The notes under the pieces are model-generated. The model ran no database searches, was not told the DNA's origin, and saw only the letters and a program-made list of their open reading frames with translations. From IMG/VR virus record IMGVR_UViG_3300037762_000184, positions 1-64,000 of that record: a stretch of 64,000 bases of DNA. One strand, 5' to 3'. The number at the start of each line of letters is the position of its first letter. The stretch's first letter is position 1. The DNA is from a virus (Duplodnaviria > Caudoviricetes). Position numbers and translations under genes: made by a program. Positions 2,617 through 31,079 of this stretch are shown piece by piece.

Positions 2617-2814
2617 GTTCGCGCACGGTTTGCACCTCCATGACGGACCCGGAACAGCAAGTCGTTGACTCTAAAAGACCTTCACTCATCGCGCCGCGTT
2701 CTCCATTGCGACATGCCATCCCCTGCGGGGAGTGTCCCTCCTCTGCCATATCGTCTCCCGGCGCCGGATTACCGCCCTCAACACTACCCGTGGTGTGGAT
2801 CGGTTCGCGCACGG
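2617..2814. other. putative attP region
   Basis: 12-bp direct repeat GTTCGCGCACGG at 2617-2628 and 2803-2814 directly upstream of the integrase, as for arm-type sites. Confidence 0.4.
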
Positions 2815-2845
2815 GGAGCGCACCGGCGATGTAGACTCGCCGGCC

Positions 2846-4162
2846 GTGCCGAGGCTGCCGGACACCGACCGCGCGATTCGAGGGCTCCAGCCCGCCGACC
2901 GCCCCGTTGACTATCGGGACGGCGGCTTTCACCGGGGCGGCGGATCGCTGTTCCTGCGCGTCGCCGTGACGGGTCGGAAGCGGTGGTACTTCACCTACAA
3001 CCGGCCGAGCGAGGTGGTCAAGGCTCGCGGCTCCCACTACCCGCGGGCGACCATTGCGGGCGACTTGTTCCCGACGGTCGGCCTCGCCGCCGCGCGCGCC
3101 TGGGCCGCGGGTATGCGATCGCAGGTCTTCGCCAACATCGACCCCAAGCCGGCCCGGATCGCCCAGCCGACGCTCCGCGAGCTGATTGCCGAATACGGTC
3201 ACCGCGTCGGCAAGAGGGCGAGGAGTTGGCCACAGGCGGACACCTACCTCAAGGCGCACGTCCTCGATTGGGGCAAGGACAGGCTCGGCGTGCCGTTGGG
3301 CGATATGCCGGTGGGGGCCATCACCACGCCGATGCTCGTGGACTGTCTCGACGCCGTGGTCGAAGGCGGGGCGCCGGCCAGCGCGAACCGCCTGAAGTCC
3401 ATCCTGTCGCCGATCTTCAAGTGGGCGCAGCAGCGAGGACGCGTCGAGGCCAACCCGCTTGCCGGCCTGCCACTGCCGGCGCCGAAGCGGAGCCGCGACC
3501 GCACGTTGTCGGATCGGGAGATCATCACGTTCTGGCGCCTCGCCGAGGAGGTGGCGCCACACCGCGCCTCGTGGGGCCTGCGCCTCGTGCTCGCCACCGG
3601 GCAGCGACCCGGTGAGGTTCTGTGCTTCGAGCCCTCGGAGCTGGCCTGGGAGCACGCGGTCAACTTGCCGGACGGATCGCGCTGGGAGGGGGCCGCCTGG
3701 ATCATCCCGAAGGCGAAGCACAAGACCGGACGGCGTCTCATCGCCACCGGCAAGGCCGACCAGGCGCGAGACCACGTGGTGCCGCTCTCCGGCCTCGCCG
3801 CCCAACTCTTCCGCCTCGCCCTCGACAATCCCGTCTCCGACGACTACCCGCTGCTCAAGACCCCGCCGCCGGCCGACATGAACCCGGCCTTCCACGGGCG
3901 CAACGATCTCGGAACCTTCCGCCGCGAGATGGAGCACTGGACGCCACAAGACCTTCGCCGCACCGCCTACACCGGTATGACATCCCTCGGCATCCCGCGC
4001 GATACGGTCGAGGCGGTGGTCGGGCACAGCGTCCGCGGCGTGGCCGGAGTCTATGACCGCTACTCCTACCTGAGGGAGAAGGCGCGCGCGCTCGAAGCTT
4101 GGGGGCGGCACCTGGATGCTCGGGTTAGCGGCCGAGAGGCGGCCGTGGTTCGGATCGGCTAG
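2846..4162 (+). CDS. int: tyrosine integrase with N-terminal arm-binding domain (P4/IntA-like)
   Basis: arm domain (TDRAIRGLQP...LFLRVAVTGRKRWYFTY); catalytic GQRPGE, QDLRR (H to Q), VGH, GVYDR; GTG 2846 preferred over ATG 2732. Confidence 0.92.
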   Translation: MPRLPDTDRAIRGLQPADRPVDYRDGGFHRGGGSLFLRVAVTGRKRWYFTYNRPSEVVKARGSHYPRATIAGDLFPTVGLAAARAWAAGMRSQVFANIDPKPARIAQPTLRELIAEYGHRVGKRARSWPQADTYLKAHVLDWGKDRLGVPLGDMPVGAITTPMLVDCLDAVVEGGAPASANRLKSILSPIFKWAQQRGRVEANPLAGLPLPAPKRSRDRTLSDREIITFWRLAEEVAPHRASWGLRLVLATGQRPGEVLCFEPSELAWEHAVNLPDGSRWEGAAWIIPKAKHKTGRRLIATGKADQARDHVVPLSGLAAQLFRLALDNPVSDDYPLLKTPPPADMNPAFHGRNDLGTFRREMEHWTPQDLRRTAYTGMTSLGIPRDTVEAVVGHSVRGVAGVYDRYSYLREKARALEAWGRHLDARVSGREAAVVRIG

Positions 4163-24032: not shown

Positions 24033-24214
24033 CGCTGGCCTCCCTTCGCCTCGACGATCGCCGTCATGAGCGCCCGCCTCAGCCCCTCAGCCGTCTCCAC
24101 CGGGATGGTCGCCACCATCGACAGAGGAGGAGAGCCGGAGACCACCAGCACGCCTGAGAGCGCGACGGTGACGGTGCCTGCCTTGGGGTCAGGGGTGACC
24201 GAGAGGGCGGTCAC
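24029..24214 (-). CDS. hypothetical protein
   Basis: coupled overlaps. Confidence 0.55.
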   Translation of the reverse strand: MTALSVTPDPKAGTVTVALSGVLVVSGSPPLSMVATIPVETAEGLRRALMTAIVEAKGGQR

Positions 24215-24987
24215 ACCGCGCTCCGAGCGCGAGCCGCGGCATCACTCAGGAAGGCGAGGGGGAGCCGCCGCTCCTTGGAGGCATGGTTGTAGACCTGCTC
24301 CAGGCTGAGCACGTAGTCGCGGATGCTGCGCTGCCTTTCCAGCAGGTGGTTCCACTTGCCGAGCCTCCTCTCCAGCTCGGTGAGGTCAACTTCCTCGACG
24401 ATCACGACGCGGGAAGCCGCCTGAACGAACGGCGTCGTGGTGGCGAACGCGCTGCCCGCCTCCTTGGCGGCCGCGACGAGCCGGGCCACCGCCTCCGCGT
24501 GTTGGCGGCCCGCAGGAGTCACTCGGTAGTTGCCCGCCTTGAACCCGGGGTACTTGTTGTGACTGGCGGCAAGCTCACCGGCGAGCATCCCGATGCAGCA
24601 GCCGAGCGGGAGGTCCGTGCGCGTCCAAAACTGCTTCACCTCGACGTAGTAGCCGCGCCCCTCGCGAACGTAGGAGGTGAGGTAGTCGGCCAACGACCAC
24701 GGCTTCGTGGCGGCCTCCAGCTCGTGAATGCCGATATCCCCGTCGTCGGCGAGGACGTAGTAGACCGGGATGCCAAGCTCGCGGGCGACGGCGAAGCGGT
24801 GGTGTCCGGCTTTGATCTTCAGCTTCGTGCCGTTCGGGACGCAGTGGAGTGGGTACTGCGGCAGGAAGCCATACCGCTCCATGCTCTTGCGCAGCTTGTC
24901 GGGCTCCGTGTCCCGGTTCTGTGGGTTCAGCTCGAACTTGTCGTAGTCGCGGGTCGACAGCAGCTTCGGTGCGGCGGCGGTGGTCAT
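24211..24987 (-). CDS. ParB/Srx N-terminal domain protein
   Basis: NPQNR...LRKSMERYGFL...IKAGHHRFAVARELG. Confidence 0.85.
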   Translation of the reverse strand: MTTAAAPKLLSTRDYDKFELNPQNRDTEPDKLRKSMERYGFLPQYPLHCVPNGTKLKIKAGHHRFAVARELGIPVYYVLADDGDIGIHELEAATKPWSLADYLTSYVREGRGYYVEVKQFWTRTDLPLGCCIGMLAGELAASHNKYPGFKAGNYRVTPAGRQHAEAVARLVAAAKEAGSAFATTTPFVQAASRVVIVEEVDLTELERRLGKWNHLLERQRSIRDYVLSLEQVYNHASKERRLPLAFLSDAAARARSAV

Positions 24988-25715
24988 GCGGTCTGCTCCT
25001 CCCTGTTCAGCTCATTGGCGATCCAGTCGTTCACCCGGAAAAGCGCAGCCACCCGATGGGGGTCGGTGCGGCTGATGCGTTCCAGTTGGCTGATCGCGGA
25101 CTCGGCGAAAGCCATCGCGTCGGAAATCTCGGCGGGGGGGATGCGCTCGGGAAGCCGCAACGGTTCCGGCGCCGTCTCCGCTCGCCGCCCGATGTTCGTG
25201 GTGTCCTGCTGGTAGGTGGTCCCGCCGCGGGTCACTTCGCGAATCGCGGGCCGTTCTATCTTAGGTTCGTCCTGAGATAGCACCTCGTCACGGCGCAAGC
25301 GGCTGACCCATGATTGGTCGACGCCGCAAGCCTTCGCGATTTCGCTGTCGCTCAAGGACACCCACTCGAAATCGTTGAGAAGGGTGAAAACAGCCTTCCG
25401 CTTGTCGGCATTGGAGCGGCGCAGCCCGTGGGCTTGATTCGCCCCCACGCTGTAGAGGATCGCGTCCCGCCGCGTGCCGCTCTTGACCTCCGGCCGGCAG
25501 CTCGTCAGCCCTGCCCGCTTCATCGCGTGGTACCGGTGGAAGCCGTCCGCCAGCCAGTACTCGGCGCCGTCGTGGAAGACGACCACCGGCGGGAACTCGG
25601 CGTCACCCTCCATCGCCTCGGCGTACTCGGCGACGGTGGTTTCGTTGATCTCCGCCCGCGGCTGCGTGTCGCCGTCCAGGCGGATCAGGTCGAGGTGAAG
25701 GGGCTTGCCGCTCAC
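24984..25715 (-). CDS. ParB/Srx domain + HTH protein
   Basis: TQPRAEINE..VAEYAEAM..FPPVVVF..G..YWLADGFHRYHA; SDSEIAKACGVDQSWVSRLR. Confidence 0.88.
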   Translation of the reverse strand: MSGKPLHLDLIRLDGDTQPRAEINETTVAEYAEAMEGDAEFPPVVVFHDGAEYWLADGFHRYHAMKRAGLTSCRPEVKSGTRRDAILYSVGANQAHGLRRSNADKRKAVFTLLNDFEWVSLSDSEIAKACGVDQSWVSRLRRDEVLSQDEPKIERPAIREVTRGGTTYQQDTTNIGRRAETAPEPLRLPERIPPAEISDAMAFAESAISQLERISRTDPHRVAALFRVNDWIANELNREEQTA

Positions 25716-25987
25716 GCTGCCGCTCCAGCCTTCCGCTCGCCGGAGTCGGCGGGCTCCAACTCCCACCCATCTGCCGGCGAGTTGAAGAGCCGCTGCAAGA
25801 TGCCGGTGTTTGCGCCATCCGGGCGCCCGGCCTCGCATAGCCAGACGCGCACGGTTGAGGCGGCGAGTGGTCCCTTGTCGATCTTCCGGCGCTCCGCCGA
25901 GACCATCGCCGCCACGTCCTTGTCGGTGAGTCCGCGCGCCCGCATCGTGTCGCGAAGGTGGCGCGCCGAGGGTCGGTAAGTTGCCAT
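25712..25987 (-). CDS. Cro-like HTH regulator
   Basis: LRDTMRARGLTDKDVAAMV...ASTVRVW; divergent from XRE repressor. Confidence 0.7.
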   Translation of the reverse strand: MATYRPSARHLRDTMRARGLTDKDVAAMVSAERRKIDKGPLAASTVRVWLCEAGRPDGANTGILQRLFNSPADGWELEPADSGERKAGAAA

Positions 25988-25994
25988 GCGCAGC

Positions 25995-26071
25995 ACCATA
26001 GCGTCTTGCGGCTTACCTGTCAAGCCCCTCCGCGCATGCTGCTTGACACAGCAAGCCAGCGCGGCTAACAT
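25995..26071. promoter_or_regulatory. back-to-back sigma70-type promoters of the lysis/lysogeny switch
   Basis: minus: TTGACA(26018-23)-17-TATGGT(25995-26000); plus: TTGACA(26043-48)-17-TAACAT(26066-71). Confidence 0.8.
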
Positions 26072-26081
26072 GCGCGATGCT

Positions 26082-26525
26082 ATGGGCGTAGAGCGCACCA
26101 TTGCGCTGCACAGCGCAGCGGAGTACCCTGGGAGGGTGACTCACCCTTTGGCCGGCTTGGGGCCGGCGCTTGCTGTGCTGCGGAACCGCCGCGGCATGAC
26201 TCAGCGGGAGCTAGAGGAAGCCGCCGACGTGGCCGAGAACAGCGTCAGTCGCTTCGAGAACGGCAGGCACATGCGGCTGGACATTCTCAGCCGTCTCCTT
26301 GCAGCGCTTGGTGCCGACCTGTGCGACCTCGGAGTCGAGGCGCGAAGGGCGGTGGAGGTGGGCGAGGGCGAGGCAGCCGAGCCTCGCAGCCCCTACCACT
26401 ACATGGCGGTGGAAACCGGGGCCGTATCAGAGCGCCGCCGGCTGGCGCTACTAGAGCAACGGCAGGCGGAGCTGGAATTGAGGCTGGCGGGTCTGGAGGA
26501 CAAAGGCATAGCGGGGCGGGAGTGA
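26082..26525 (+). CDS. XRE-family HTH repressor (CI-like), no peptidase domain
   Basis: LAVLRNRRGMTQRELEEAADVAENSVSRFENG; start uncertain (26082 ATG or 26136 GTG). Confidence 0.88.
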   Translation: MGVERTIALHSAAEYPGRVTHPLAGLGPALAVLRNRRGMTQRELEEAADVAENSVSRFENGRHMRLDILSRLLAALGADLCDLGVEARRAVEVGEGEAAEPRSPYHYMAVETGAVSERRRLALLEQRQAELELRLAGLEDKGIAGRE

Positions 26526-26529
26526 ACTC

Positions 26530-27369
26530 ATGGGATTTGAAGAGCTAGCGCAGCGCGCGAACGACTGCCGGGTGGCCGGCAGGCACGAGGAGGCGGCGGA
26601 GCTGTTCGCCAGGGCGGAGGACGAGCTTTCGCCGGACGTCGAGGACCGGCGCCGGGCGCTGCTCCTGTCGTTGCAGGCGACGCTCGACCGGGACATGTGC
26701 CGCTACGGCTCGGCGCTCGACAAGCTGACCCGCGCCGCCAGGCTCTACCGCCTACACGGTGACAGCGACGGGCTCGCCCGGTGCGATATCAAGCGCGGCA
26801 TCGCCCTCGACGACATGGGCGAGCACGAGGCGGCGAAGGCGGAGTTCGGCTCGGCCTGGAAGCGGGTGCCTCCAGACTCCGACCTCCGGGTCATGGCGGT
26901 CTACAACATCATCAACGCCGAGGTGTGCCAGGGGAACATCGCGCAGGCGCGGGCGATGTTCGAGGCGATGCGCCCGGCCGCAGATCTCATGGTGGAGCAA
27001 GGCGACCCGCTCGGCCATCATCTGCGGGTGCACTGGACCGAGGCCGAGATTCTGCTCGGCGAGGATCGGGTCGAGGAGGCCCGCTCAATCCTACGGGAGG
27101 TGTCCAGCCACTACGCGGCGACGGGCTCGGCGATCGACGCGTGCCGTGCCCTGACGGACTTGGCGGAGTGCGCGGTGCGGCTCGGAGAGTTGCCGGAGGC
27201 CGACGCGACCGCCTTGGTTATCGCCGGCCTGATGGCGAGGATCGGCCCGCGGGAGTCAGAGACGGTGCGGAAGATAGTACTGGCGCGGATGTCTCGGCGC
27301 CAGTACTCCGAGGCCGTGTTGAAGATGGTCCTGCTACGGAAGGGTCCGGCCCGTGTCCTGCGAGGCTAG
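26530..27369 (+). CDS. tetratricopeptide-repeat protein (candidate peptide receptor)
   Basis: repeating helical TPR-like pattern throughout; no HTH; 4 nt after repressor stop. Confidence 0.8.
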   Translation: MGFEELAQRANDCRVAGRHEEAAELFARAEDELSPDVEDRRRALLLSLQATLDRDMCRYGSALDKLTRAARLYRLHGDSDGLARCDIKRGIALDDMGEHEAAKAEFGSAWKRVPPDSDLRVMAVYNIINAEVCQGNIAQARAMFEAMRPAADLMVEQGDPLGHHLRVHWTEAEILLGEDRVEEARSILREVSSHYAATGSAIDACRALTDLAECAVRLGELPEADATALVIAGLMARIGPRESETVRKIVLARMSRRQYSEAVLKMVLLRKGPARVLRG

Positions 27370-27635
27370 CCGTCAGGGTCCATTGAAGGATTCGCTTCCG
27401 TGCCGTTGTCGCATGCGGCGCAGGCGTCGCTCGTCGCGTCTTCCGGCACCGGCTCGACGGCCGGCTCCGGTTCCTCAGAGCTCGCGCTCACCCCGACCAC
27501 CTCGAGCACGTCTCCCCAGGCAGCGGAGAGCCACCCCCACCAGCCCGCCGGCCCGTCCATCGGCCCCGCCATCGCCGGCGAAGCCAGCAGCAGAGACAGG
27601 AGCAGGCACCCCGTGAATCTCTTGGTCCTCAGCAT
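27366..27635 (-). CDS. small secreted pro-peptide ending SMDPDG
   Basis: signal peptide MLRTKRFTGCLLLSLLLASPAMA|; GGGAG SD; stop shares CTAG with TPR gene. Confidence 0.8.
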   Translation of the reverse strand: MLRTKRFTGCLLLSLLLASPAMAGPMDGPAGWWGWLSAAWGDVLEVVGVSASSEEPEPAVEPVPEDATSDACAACDNGTEANPSMDPDG

Positions 27636-27698: not shown

Positions 27699-27902
27699 AT
27701 GCGGGTGACAGAGGAGGGCGCCAGTGCTCTGGCAGGGGTGGCCGTCGTGCTCGTCATCGTCGCTGCAGGGATGATCGGCTGGTCTGCGGAGAGCGAGGGG
27801 ATCGGCAAGGTGCTGGGGTTCCCGGCGGCTGCGGCGGCGCTGTTCGCGGCGTTGGTGTGCGGCGGGCTGGCGGTGGGGTGGTGGTGGCGGAGCAGGGAGT
27901 AG
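27699..27902 (+). CDS. small two-TM membrane protein
   Basis: two hydrophobic helices; start uncertain. Confidence 0.6.
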   Translation: MRVTEEGASALAGVAVVLVIVAAGMIGWSAESEGIGKVLGFPAAAAALFAALVCGGLAVGWWWRSRE

Positions 27903-29489: not shown

Positions 29490-31079
29490 TCAGGTTGCCT
29501 TCTTGTCCACCGTCAGCAGCACGACGTTGACGTTCGTCCCGCACTCCCGGAAGCTCCCCTCTGGCAAGTCCTGGAACCGGCCGCCCAGCTTCTCGACCTG
29601 CGCTCGGAACGCTTCCGCCTTCGGGGTGCTGGCGTACTCCGCCGAAGCGCTCATGATCGCCACCAGGCGCCCGCCCGGCTTCACGAAGCGCAGAGCGTGG
29701 TGGGCGTGGTCGATGTCGCGGCCTCGGTCGAACGGCGGGTTCATGACGACTCGGTCGTAGATCGGTTCGGCTGGCATCGCCAGGAAGTCCCGCGCCAGCA
29801 CCCGAGCGCAGTAACCGGCCCGGCGCAGGTCGGCGGCCAGCTCGGGTTGAATCTCGACCGCCGTCACGCGGTGGCCGGCGGGCTTGGTTTCCCTACGGTC
29901 GCGCCGACCGTTCGCCGCCACCTCGTAGCCCGCCACCCGCCGCGCCAATTGGCCCGTGCCGGCGCTCGGCTCTAGGACTTGCAGGGGGTCGTCGCTGTAG
30001 AGGTGCGCTTCTCGGATGACCCAATCGGCCAGCGAATCCGGTGTCGGGAACAGCCCGAAGTTGCGGGCGGGTGCGCGTTCGATGGCGCCGGAGAACGGCT
30101 TCTCTGGGTCCGGCTCCCGCTCGGCCTTCCCCCAGCCCAGCCCCGCGCCGTAGTAGTCGGCCAGAAGCCTGTTGACCTTCGCCAGCAGGTCGTTGCGCCG
30201 AAACCACAGGTGAGCGTTTCCGTTCTTGAAGACGCGAATCTCGAAGTAGTCTCCAAAGTGGCGACTCTGCCGGCGGTCGAAGCCATTGCGCCGGCCCGCT
30301 TCGATGGCGCCGACGATGCCGCCATAGGCGGCGGTCGGCTTCTTGCCGTCGAGAATCAGAAACACGCGCTCGATGTCGAGGATGGTGTCACGCACGCCGT
30401 CGTAGTGGTTCCACGATCCCCAATCGTTGAACGCATAGGTCAGGATGAGGCGGGTTCCGATCTTGAAGCCGTCGTGCGAGCGGAAGCGCCGGTCAAGCTT
30501 CGAGAACGCCGTCGCAATGCCGCGCTTCCAGATCTCCCCGGCGTTTTCCCGGAACGTCTCCAGCGTGGCGAGGATGTTGTCGACGGTGACCGGCGGCAAG
30601 CCGCGGGCGGCCTCGGCGTTGTCGATCAGCCTGCCGGTGTTCCGGTCGACCTCCTCCGGGACGTAGGCCATCTGCTTGCGCAGTTTGTCCTTCGCCGTCC
30701 GGTCCATCAGGACTTCGAGCTCGGTGTGGGCGATGACGGCTCCCCACACTTGCAAGTCGGTCAGCCGCCGGGCGACGCGCTTGTGCGCCTCTACGTTCGG
30801 CGGCTCGACAGCCTTCTGAAATTCCTCGATTTCCCGAGCGTGGCCCTCGACGTAGGGCGCTGAAAAGGCTCCGTCTCCGCAGGCCAGCGCCACGCTCTTC
30901 TGCGCCTGCCGGAGCGTGACGTGGGCGGCCTCAAGCTGGTCAAAGAACTCCTCATAGAGCCGGACCGCGTCGTCCCTGCGCGCCACGATGTTGGCGATGG
31001 TGTCGCGCGGGATGAGCTGCCCGCCCGGTTCCGGCTCGTCGTCGAACGACCGTTGCTGCATCGGCTCGGCCGGCATCAC
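29490..31079 (-). CDS. DUF4942-domain DNA adenine methyltransferase-like protein
   Basis: FRSHDGFKIG.RLI...YFEIRVFKNGNAHLWF; FGLFPTP, VLEPSAGTG, VVMNPPF. Confidence 0.9.
   Translation of the reverse strand: MMPAEPMQQRSFDDEPEPGGQLIPRDTIANIVARRDDAVRLYEEFFDQLEAAHVTLRQAQKSVALACGDGAFSAPYVEGHAREIEEFQKAVEPPNVEAHKRVARRLTDLQVWGAVIAHTELEVLMDRTAKDKLRKQMAYVPEEVDRNTGRLIDNAEAARGLPPVTVDNILATLETFRENAGEIWKRGIATAFSKLDRRFRSHDGFKIGTRLILTYAFNDWGSWNHYDGVRDTILDIERVFLILDGKKPTAAYGGIVGAIEAGRRNGFDRRQSRHFGDYFEIRVFKNGNAHLWFRRNDLLAKVNRLLADYYGAGLGWGKAEREPDPEKPFSGAIERAPARNFGLFPTPDSLADWVIREAHLYSDDPLQVLEPSAGTGQLARRVAGYEVAANGRRDRRETKPAGHRVTAVEIQPELAADLRRAGYCARVLARDFLAMPAEPIYDRVVMNPPFDRGRDIDHAHHALRFVKPGGRLVAIMSASAEYASTPKAEAFRAQVEKLGGRFQDLPEGSFRECGTNVNVVLLTVDKKAT

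Follow-up and report, generated by a model that had tools for sequence, protein, structure and literature searches.

We analysed a 64,000-nucleotide stretch (the window) of the virus record IMGVR_UViG_3300037762_000184 (Duplodnaviria; Caudoviricetes), concentrating on positions 26,082 to 27,635, where an XRE-family repressor gene and a gene for a tetratricopeptide repeat (TPR) protein are met head-on by a gene for a small, predicted secreted pro-peptide. The preliminary description of this DNA had taken the three genes for a communication module of the RRNPP or arbitrium kind. Our analyses favour the view, with a probability of roughly 0.58, that a temperate phage here carries a peptide-sensing module in its immunity region; the module is likely RRNPP-like in design, neither a demonstrated RRNPP member nor a demonstrated communication system. 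The features of the region are as follows (ORF, open reading frame).

25712..25987, minus strand: cro-position gene, 91 aa, heading the leftward early operon (ORF list; PHROGs on the downstream genes)
25995..26071, both strands: switch region with back-to-back promoters (sigma70-like scan and inverted repeat I10)
26082..26525, plus strand: XRE-family repressor, 147 aa (Pfam; PHROGs transcriptional repressor/regulator; promoter position)
26530..27369, plus strand: putative TPR sensor protein, cytoplasmic, 279 aa, seven helix pairs (Pfam TPR_12/TPR_19; AlphaFold2 model)
27366..27635, minus strand: pro-peptide gene, 89 aa (translation; homologues in loci L001, L002, L007, L008, L035 and L037; alignment A6)
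27369..27392, minus strand: codons for the last eight residues, N-P-S-M-D-P-D-G, proposed as the mature signal or its core (seven-copy codon comparison)

The repressor, TPR and pro-peptide genes

The leftward early operon and the rightward repressor–TPR operon diverge from the switch region. The minus-strand promoter (TTGACA-17-TATGGT) runs from 26023 to 25995 and the plus-strand promoter (TTGACA-17-TAACAT) from 26043 to 26071; these two divergent sigma70-like promoters compare with 0.1 expected from shuffled sequence, and both -35 boxes sit within an 8-nt perfect inverted repeat (26018-26025/26041-26048). Because the first gene of each operon starts only 8-11 nt past the -10 box (the leftward -10 ends at 25995 and the cro-position ATG lies 8 nt beyond, at 25987), the repressor mRNA and the cro-position mRNA are both probably leaderless. 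The 91-aa cro-position protein matched no Pfam family, and the operon behind it contains two ParB-like genes, Erf, a primase and methyltransferases (PHROGs). The two ParB-like genes are consecutive and come right after the cro-position gene (window 24211-25838, minus strand).

In the repressor, a helix-turn-helix (HTH) at residues 26-83 is followed by a conserved S-P-Y-H-Y motif and a helical C-terminal tail, as seen in an alignment with the XRE genes of the homologous loci L002, L007 and L008. Its Pfam matches were HTH_31/HTH_3 only (5e-11), with neither a peptidase nor a sensor domain detected by Pfam, in agreement with the preliminary description of an XRE repressor devoid of a peptidase domain. 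Between its TGA stop (26523-26525) and the ATG of the TPR gene (26530) there is a gap of 4 nt, and a GGGAG Shine–Dalgarno sequence serves the latter; judging from the sequence, translation of the TPR gene is coupled to that of the repressor gene.

Coordinates and Pfam agree that the gene starting 4 nt past the repressor encodes an all-TPR protein of 279 aa, as had been noted. Its AlphaFold2 model (predicted local distance difference test score 93) has 14 helices arranged in a seven-repeat TPR superhelix. Pfam found no HTH in the protein and no signal peptide was predicted. NCBIfam offered no family for the TPR proteins, with weak AfsR/NsdA TPR matches only, and PADLOC assigned no defence family to either the TPR protein or the peptide. 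Close relatives of the TPR protein are few, and N11, R14 and W169 are invariant positions in it.

The pro-peptide gene converges on the TPR gene so tightly that the two stop codons overlap in CTAG (27366-27369); its own ATG is preceded at 6-7 nt by an AGGGAG Shine–Dalgarno sequence. Residues 1-24 form a predicted Sec signal peptide with an n-region, an h-region and a signal-peptidase site between A-M-A and G-P, and are followed by a Trp-rich amphipathic stretch, an acidic/Pro linker, C-A-A-C and the C-terminus N-P-S-M-D-P-D-G. Re-translation thus recovered every element that had been described for this convergent 89-aa gene: the shared CTAG, the Sec signal, the Trp-rich stretch, CAAC and the D-P-D-G end. 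A [DE]-P-[DN]-G end was found in 1 of 1179 stop-to-stop ORFs in the 64-kb window, the pro-peptide gene itself. A word-index search with the pro-peptide returned itself alone, and its relatives were found through synteny. A PEP-CTERM-type C-terminal sorting signal was considered and ruled out, there being no transmembrane segment or basic tail after the motif. On the plus strand, a 67-aa ORF with two predicted membrane helices (window 27699-27902) reads away from the pro-peptide gene, the two starts being only 63 bp apart. A plus-strand gene also starts beside the peptide gene in other phage-type loci: its product is a secreted protein of 147 aa in L001 and, in L008, a protein of 359 aa that weakly matches VasI.

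Conservation of the three genes in phage-type loci

The short-TPR loci from metagenomes with retrievable DNA, namely the window and L001, L002, L007, L008, L035 and L037, make up the phage-type set. Samples that contributed contigs were SRR12682713, SRR22356424, SRR13588936, SRR32548296 and SRR13837113. A small gene converges on the 3' end of the TPR gene in all seven, with a gap of ≤4 nt or an overlap. The six further products (P0005, P0006, P0160, P0161, P0164 and P0165) are organized like the window protein: after the signal peptide come a Trp-rich amphipathic segment, an acidic/Pro linker, a Cys pair and the C-terminal motif. The core across the seven copies reads x-P-[S/T/A]-[M/I/L]-D-P-D-G. 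This motif is the exact end of the protein in 6/7 copies, and the L035 copy extends two residues further. Retention of the peptide gene beside TPR homologues had been put forward as a check on the preliminary description, and it held in 7/7 phage-type loci and in most of the cellular loci considered below.

The repressor gene is part of the same arrangement. Besides the window, an XRE gene directly precedes the TPR gene in 4/4 homologue loci with a complete upstream gene (L002, L007, L008 and a 22,957-bp Logan contig). L008 is clearly phage (RecT, terminase and portal), and the Logan contig, which comes from another sample, is a second assembly of apparently the same phage. IMG/VR scans with the TPR protein and with the short-form alignment as queries found no other viral contigs with this TPR.

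The receptors of the phage-type set are 29-62% identical and the peptide core is nonetheless kept; the octapeptide is identical in L007 and L008 despite 41% receptor identity. D-P-D-G is invariant in 7/7 copies, while its codons vary synonymously (Pro CCT/CCG/CCC, Gly GGC/GGT, Asp GAC/GAT); between them, the seven genes end in each of the three stop codons. Conservation of the core beside diverged receptors, together with these synonymous changes, therefore indicates selection on the peptide end itself, and the last 7-8 residues are the part of the pre-protein under the strongest protein-level constraint.

The Cys pair ahead of the core in all phage-type copies, like the Cys-flanked loops in the cellular locus L043 (see below), would also fit a bacteriocin-like peptide or one resembling the ribosomally synthesized and post-translationally modified peptides, with the TPR and XRE proteins as its regulator or immunity pair. 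This is very improbable given an ordinary Sec signal peptide and a module that lies inside the immunity operon, and we rejected it because none of the loci shows conservation, next to the pair, of a modifying enzyme, a dedicated exporter or an immunity membrane protein.

Cellular relatives, fused regulators and the host

A profile of the TPR protein retrieved 2370 representatives at E≤1e-10, mostly of ~450 aa and with the matching part at the C-terminus. Family members in genome collections come from Thermoanaerobaculia and other Acidobacteriota, as found with the narrower alignment A4; the broad alignment A3 proved too diverse for scanning genomes. Of 401 sampled Thermoanaerobaculia genomes, 25 matched at 1e-10, usually several times (six candidates scored per genome); up to 6 matches were found in a genome, scoring 6 of ~80-90 candidates. 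These scans bear out the link to Thermoanaerobaculia made in the preliminary description. A match in Anaeromyxobacteraceae (L011) was confined to the seed metagenome-assembled genome (MAG) among 251 genomes of its class and is probably not representative.

Secreted proteins with one to three D-P-x-G units adjoin the TPR gene in L004, L009-L014, L016 and L018, and a D-P-x-G secreted neighbour is likewise present at 8-9 of 12 further loci from Thermoanaerobaculia class genomes (the Thermoanaerobaculia loci considered were L012-L018 and L023-L034). In the cellular unit, D-P-[N/D/S]-G or occasionally D-G-N-G comes after a hydrophobic or polar residue, and often two paralogous TPR genes stand on either side of the peptide gene, with an XRE gene after them. 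Multi-copy precursors are typical of processed signal peptides, and tandem units with short linkers are as expected of precursors cut into several identical signal peptides. The cassette at L010:1-7863 (a long TPR gene, a three-unit D-P-x-G peptide gene, another long TPR gene and a convergent XRE gene) probably rides on a conjugative element, because a TraI-type relaxase and RadC adjoin it.

The long forms carry an N-terminal domain of ~150 aa that is absent from the phage TPR protein and its nearest relatives. Near residue 30 of this extension, 85 of 148 representatives have H-x3/4-C-x2-C, in which H and C are mostly four residues apart, compared with three in the canonical zinc anti-sigma motif. 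Pfam zf-HC2 gave no match in eight long-form members, three of them with H-x3/4-C-x2-C.

In four representatives (P0128, P0112, P0037 and P0030), an XRE HTH is fused ahead of the TPR domain. P0128 has an HTH_3 match of 52.6 bits and a TPR part that is 30% identical to the phage TPR protein (E 2e-13). In its genome (L043), two HTH–TPR fusions flank a convergent secreted-protein gene, the product of which contains three Cys-flanked G-[I/L]-D-P-[N/D]-G units. In view of these natural fusions, the phage repressor and TPR protein probably work as a split HTH–TPR receptor, and the earlier suggestion that the TPR protein acts through the adjacent repressor gains some support. BLASTP between the repressor and P0128 gave a match confined to the HTH, and profile–profile comparison detected no relation between the repressor tail and the N-terminal extension of the long TPR forms. 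P0037 and P0030, at ~1,100 aa, resemble tandemly duplicated regulators, with two TPR-profile matches and an internal HTH apiece.

The TPR family is multi-copy in Thermoanaerobaculia genomes, and the phage peptide core barely differs from the cellular cores and hardly diversifies among phages. Both points would suit a phage that eavesdrops on its host, the captured host sensor domain reading host D-P-x-G peptides so that the state of the host sets the phage decision, or a form of mimicry in which the phage peptide acts mainly on host TPR regulators rather than from phage to phage. We consider either form quite unlikely: the phage-type peptides are a subtype of their own (upstream Cys pair, single unit, terminal D-P-D-G in 6/7), and the strict linkage of the peptide to its own receptor in 7/7 loci is as expected of a self-contained pair.

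The window is contained in a complete 83,652-bp virus genome with direct terminal repeats and a G+C content of 62-70%, which encodes a large terminase, a portal-head fusion, Erf, a primase and several methyltransferases (PHROGs matches), as well as an integrase:

2732..4162, plus strand: tyrosine integrase, 476 aa (Pfam Arm-DNA-bind_3 42.8 bits, Phage_int_M 45 bits, Phage_integrase 21.3 bits)

With its integrase and tailed-phage genes, the source of the window is therefore a temperate tailed phage. Because of the shared gene family and the G+C content, its host is probably a diderm soil acidobacterium of the Thermoanaerobaculia. Weak matches to the terminase turned up in only 2 of 301 Thermoanaerobaculia genomes, and the five seed MAGs had none. 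Immediately upstream of the integrase, window positions of about 2408-2536 gave many short matches of 76-96% identity, those in dozens of Thermoanaerobaculia genomes being 76-91% identical; no tRNA or Rfam family was found there and no attB could be called, and the segment may represent a small conserved gene or no more than G+C-rich DNA.

Comparison with known systems and proposed mechanism

RRNPP systems have been described as Gram-positive Firmicutes systems (PMC10075063). In the paper library searched, looking for RRNPP, arbitrium or signalling peptides in Acidobacteria, Thermoanaerobaculia, Myxococcota and Gram-negative hosts yielded nothing relevant. A fold search with the TPR model matched NprR–NprX (Z 20.4), Rap of phage phi3T (20.0), RapF (19.8), RapI (18.6), AimR (17.1) and PlcR (17.0). 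A cytoplasmic TPR superhelix and an adjacent small gene with a predicted Sec signal are the features common to RRNPP systems and the phage genes. In RRNPP receptors the output domain is on the TPR polypeptide, whereas the phage TPR protein has none and the HTH is encoded by a separate upstream gene.

The arbitrium system of SPbeta-like Bacillus phages (AimR–AimP–AimX) resembles the module in being phage-encoded, in its small Sec pro-peptide with a conserved C-terminus, in its cytoplasmic TPR-type receptor and in its placement at the lysis/lysogeny control region of a temperate phage. The two differ in several respects. AimR bears its own HTH, here found in the separate repressor gene; the peptide is an AimP-type hexapeptide instead of x-P-[STA]-[MIL]-D-P-D-G; its gene is co-directional with that of the receptor and not convergent; and the hosts are Bacillota, as against a probably diderm acidobacterium. 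No aimX-like unit is evident in the phage, where the receptor gene is followed by the convergent peptide gene itself, and there is no specific sequence or fold link, AimR ranking under generic TPR proteins.

In the Rap–Phr systems (RapI–PhrI of ICEBs1 and the Rap proteins of phages phi3T and phi105), the TPR receptor likewise has no DNA-binding domain and acts on another protein, ultimately the XRE-type repressor ImmR in the case of ICEBs1, as the phage TPR protein would. These systems, too, are carried by mobile elements or phages, and Rap proteins are among the best fold matches (Z 18-20). However, Rap proteins are ~375 aa long with an N-terminal helical bundle, which is missing from the 279-aa phage protein (aligned to Rap residues ~98-365); phr genes are co-directional with and overlap their receptor genes, unlike the convergent phage gene; and the sequence similarity is at the generic TPR level only. 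NprR–NprX, PlcR–PapR and Rgg–SHP have an XRE HTH followed by TPR, the same layout as the fused relatives P0128 and P0112 beside their secreted pro-peptide gene, and NprR is a top-ranking fold match. Those receptors are single polypeptides, whereas the phage halves are separate genes for which homology to the RRNPP group cannot be demonstrated, and they belong to another phylum and use another peptide chemistry.

The acidobacterial pairs of a Zn-finger/TPR protein and a D-P-x-G peptide, on which we found no paper, belong to the same TPR family (E down to 1e-88, 30-34% identity) and have the same kind of secreted neighbour. The phage version does without their ~150-aa N-terminal domain and is coupled instead to the phage repressor at the lysogeny switch, and its convergent gene encodes a peptide of one unit only, preceded by a Cys pair. 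In PrgX/PrgQ of pCF10, regulator and peptide gene also face each other, and convergent transcription can add to the switch; the likeness is one of layout only, as the proteins are unrelated.

As a peptide-sensing module, the locus could work in the following way. The repressor and the TPR protein would form a complex, that is, a split HTH–TPR receptor. The Sec-exported pro-peptide would be cut, releasing a C-terminal x-P-[STA]-[MIL]-D-P-D-G peptide that would accumulate with the number of infected or lysogenic cells, re-enter cells and bind the concave face of the TPR superhelix. The bound TPR protein would then alter the action of the repressor at the 25995-26071 promoters, in a direction that cannot be read from the sequence; the result would be a bias in the phage's lysis/lysogeny or induction decision, comparable to the effect of arbitrium and RapI–PhrI. 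The tight convergent layout, in which no terminator separates the genes, may add transcriptional interference between peptide and receptor expression.

A number of observations weigh against such a module. In the fold search, the eukaryotic TPR proteins TSK (Z 22.6), APPBP2 (20.8), LGN and KLC1 equalled or outscored the RRNPP receptors, and a profile search of PDB sequences returned only generic TPR similarity, with RapH (4e-6) ranking below KLC, Pins and designed TPR proteins. Whereas AimP and Phr have diversified into pherotypes, the peptide core here is almost constant even beside diverged receptors, which could reflect a processing or transport role, or one signal common to all these phages. 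A sigma70-like scan found no consensus promoter for the pro-peptide gene. The host assignment draws solely on gene-family sharing and G+C content; no prophage-type short TPR was found in the 401 Thermoanaerobaculia genomes scanned, and the nearest terminases of cultured phages are those of Xanthomonas (57% identity) and Rhizobium (47%) phages. A diderm host would require two outer-membrane crossings and an importer, and we know of neither; the genes near the module include none for an importer. Finally, it is the gene-level steps alone that have been shown, and binding, processing, export and import are inferred.

The fused HTH–TPR form gave a fold-search outcome like that of the phage TPR protein, with RRNPP receptors tied with generic TPR proteins. 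On the model, the TPR fold is a generic peptide-binding-type superhelix, from which RRNPP kinship by descent cannot be claimed. Of the RRNPP- or arbitrium-like module proposed initially, the design and the gene layout thus stand, but the fold and sequence link is no better than that to eukaryotic TPR proteins, and the peptide core shows little of the diversity seen in pherotypes.

TPR domains often bind intact C-terminal tails, and HOP–EEVD, the cargo tails of KLC1 and the C-degron of APPBP2 are examples among the fold matches. The TPR protein could accordingly be a co-repressor or anti-repressor that binds the precursor tail before export, as a timer or a sensor of secretion load, with no extracellular signalling at all. 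Alternatively, it may sense another cue, and the small protein, whose conserved Trp-rich amphipathic segment hints at a part that is folded or acts on membranes, may have a separate envelope job such as superinfection exclusion. We regard such explanations as unlikely: the two or three tandem units of the cellular relatives fit released peptides better than a single tail, and the pairing is found outside phages too, which speaks against a purely phage-envelope role.

Signalling by peptides through cytoplasmic TPR receptors is regarded as a speciality of Bacillota, and phage arbitrium communication is, to our knowledge, so far confined to this Gram-positive phylum. That the module is the first arbitrium-like peptide communication of phages outside this phylum, with a Thermoanaerobaculia phage having captured a host sensor domain, split off the HTH, wired the sensor to its own repressor and adopted a D-P-D-G signal, is a proposition to which we would give slightly less than even odds. 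If it were true, genetically encoded peptide signalling through cytoplasmic TPR receptors would be widespread in Acidobacteriota, phage 'small talk' would extend to a diderm, mostly uncultured soil phylum, and a large signalling family of Acidobacteriota that has gone unstudied would be indicated. The system is compact, comprising three genes and one 77-bp promoter region, and could be rebuilt in a laboratory host without culturing the natural one.

Farther along the window, a 529-aa DUF4942–methyltransferase fusion (29490-31079, minus strand) belongs to an operon of small genes that runs leftward and stops some hundreds of bases upstream of the peptide gene.

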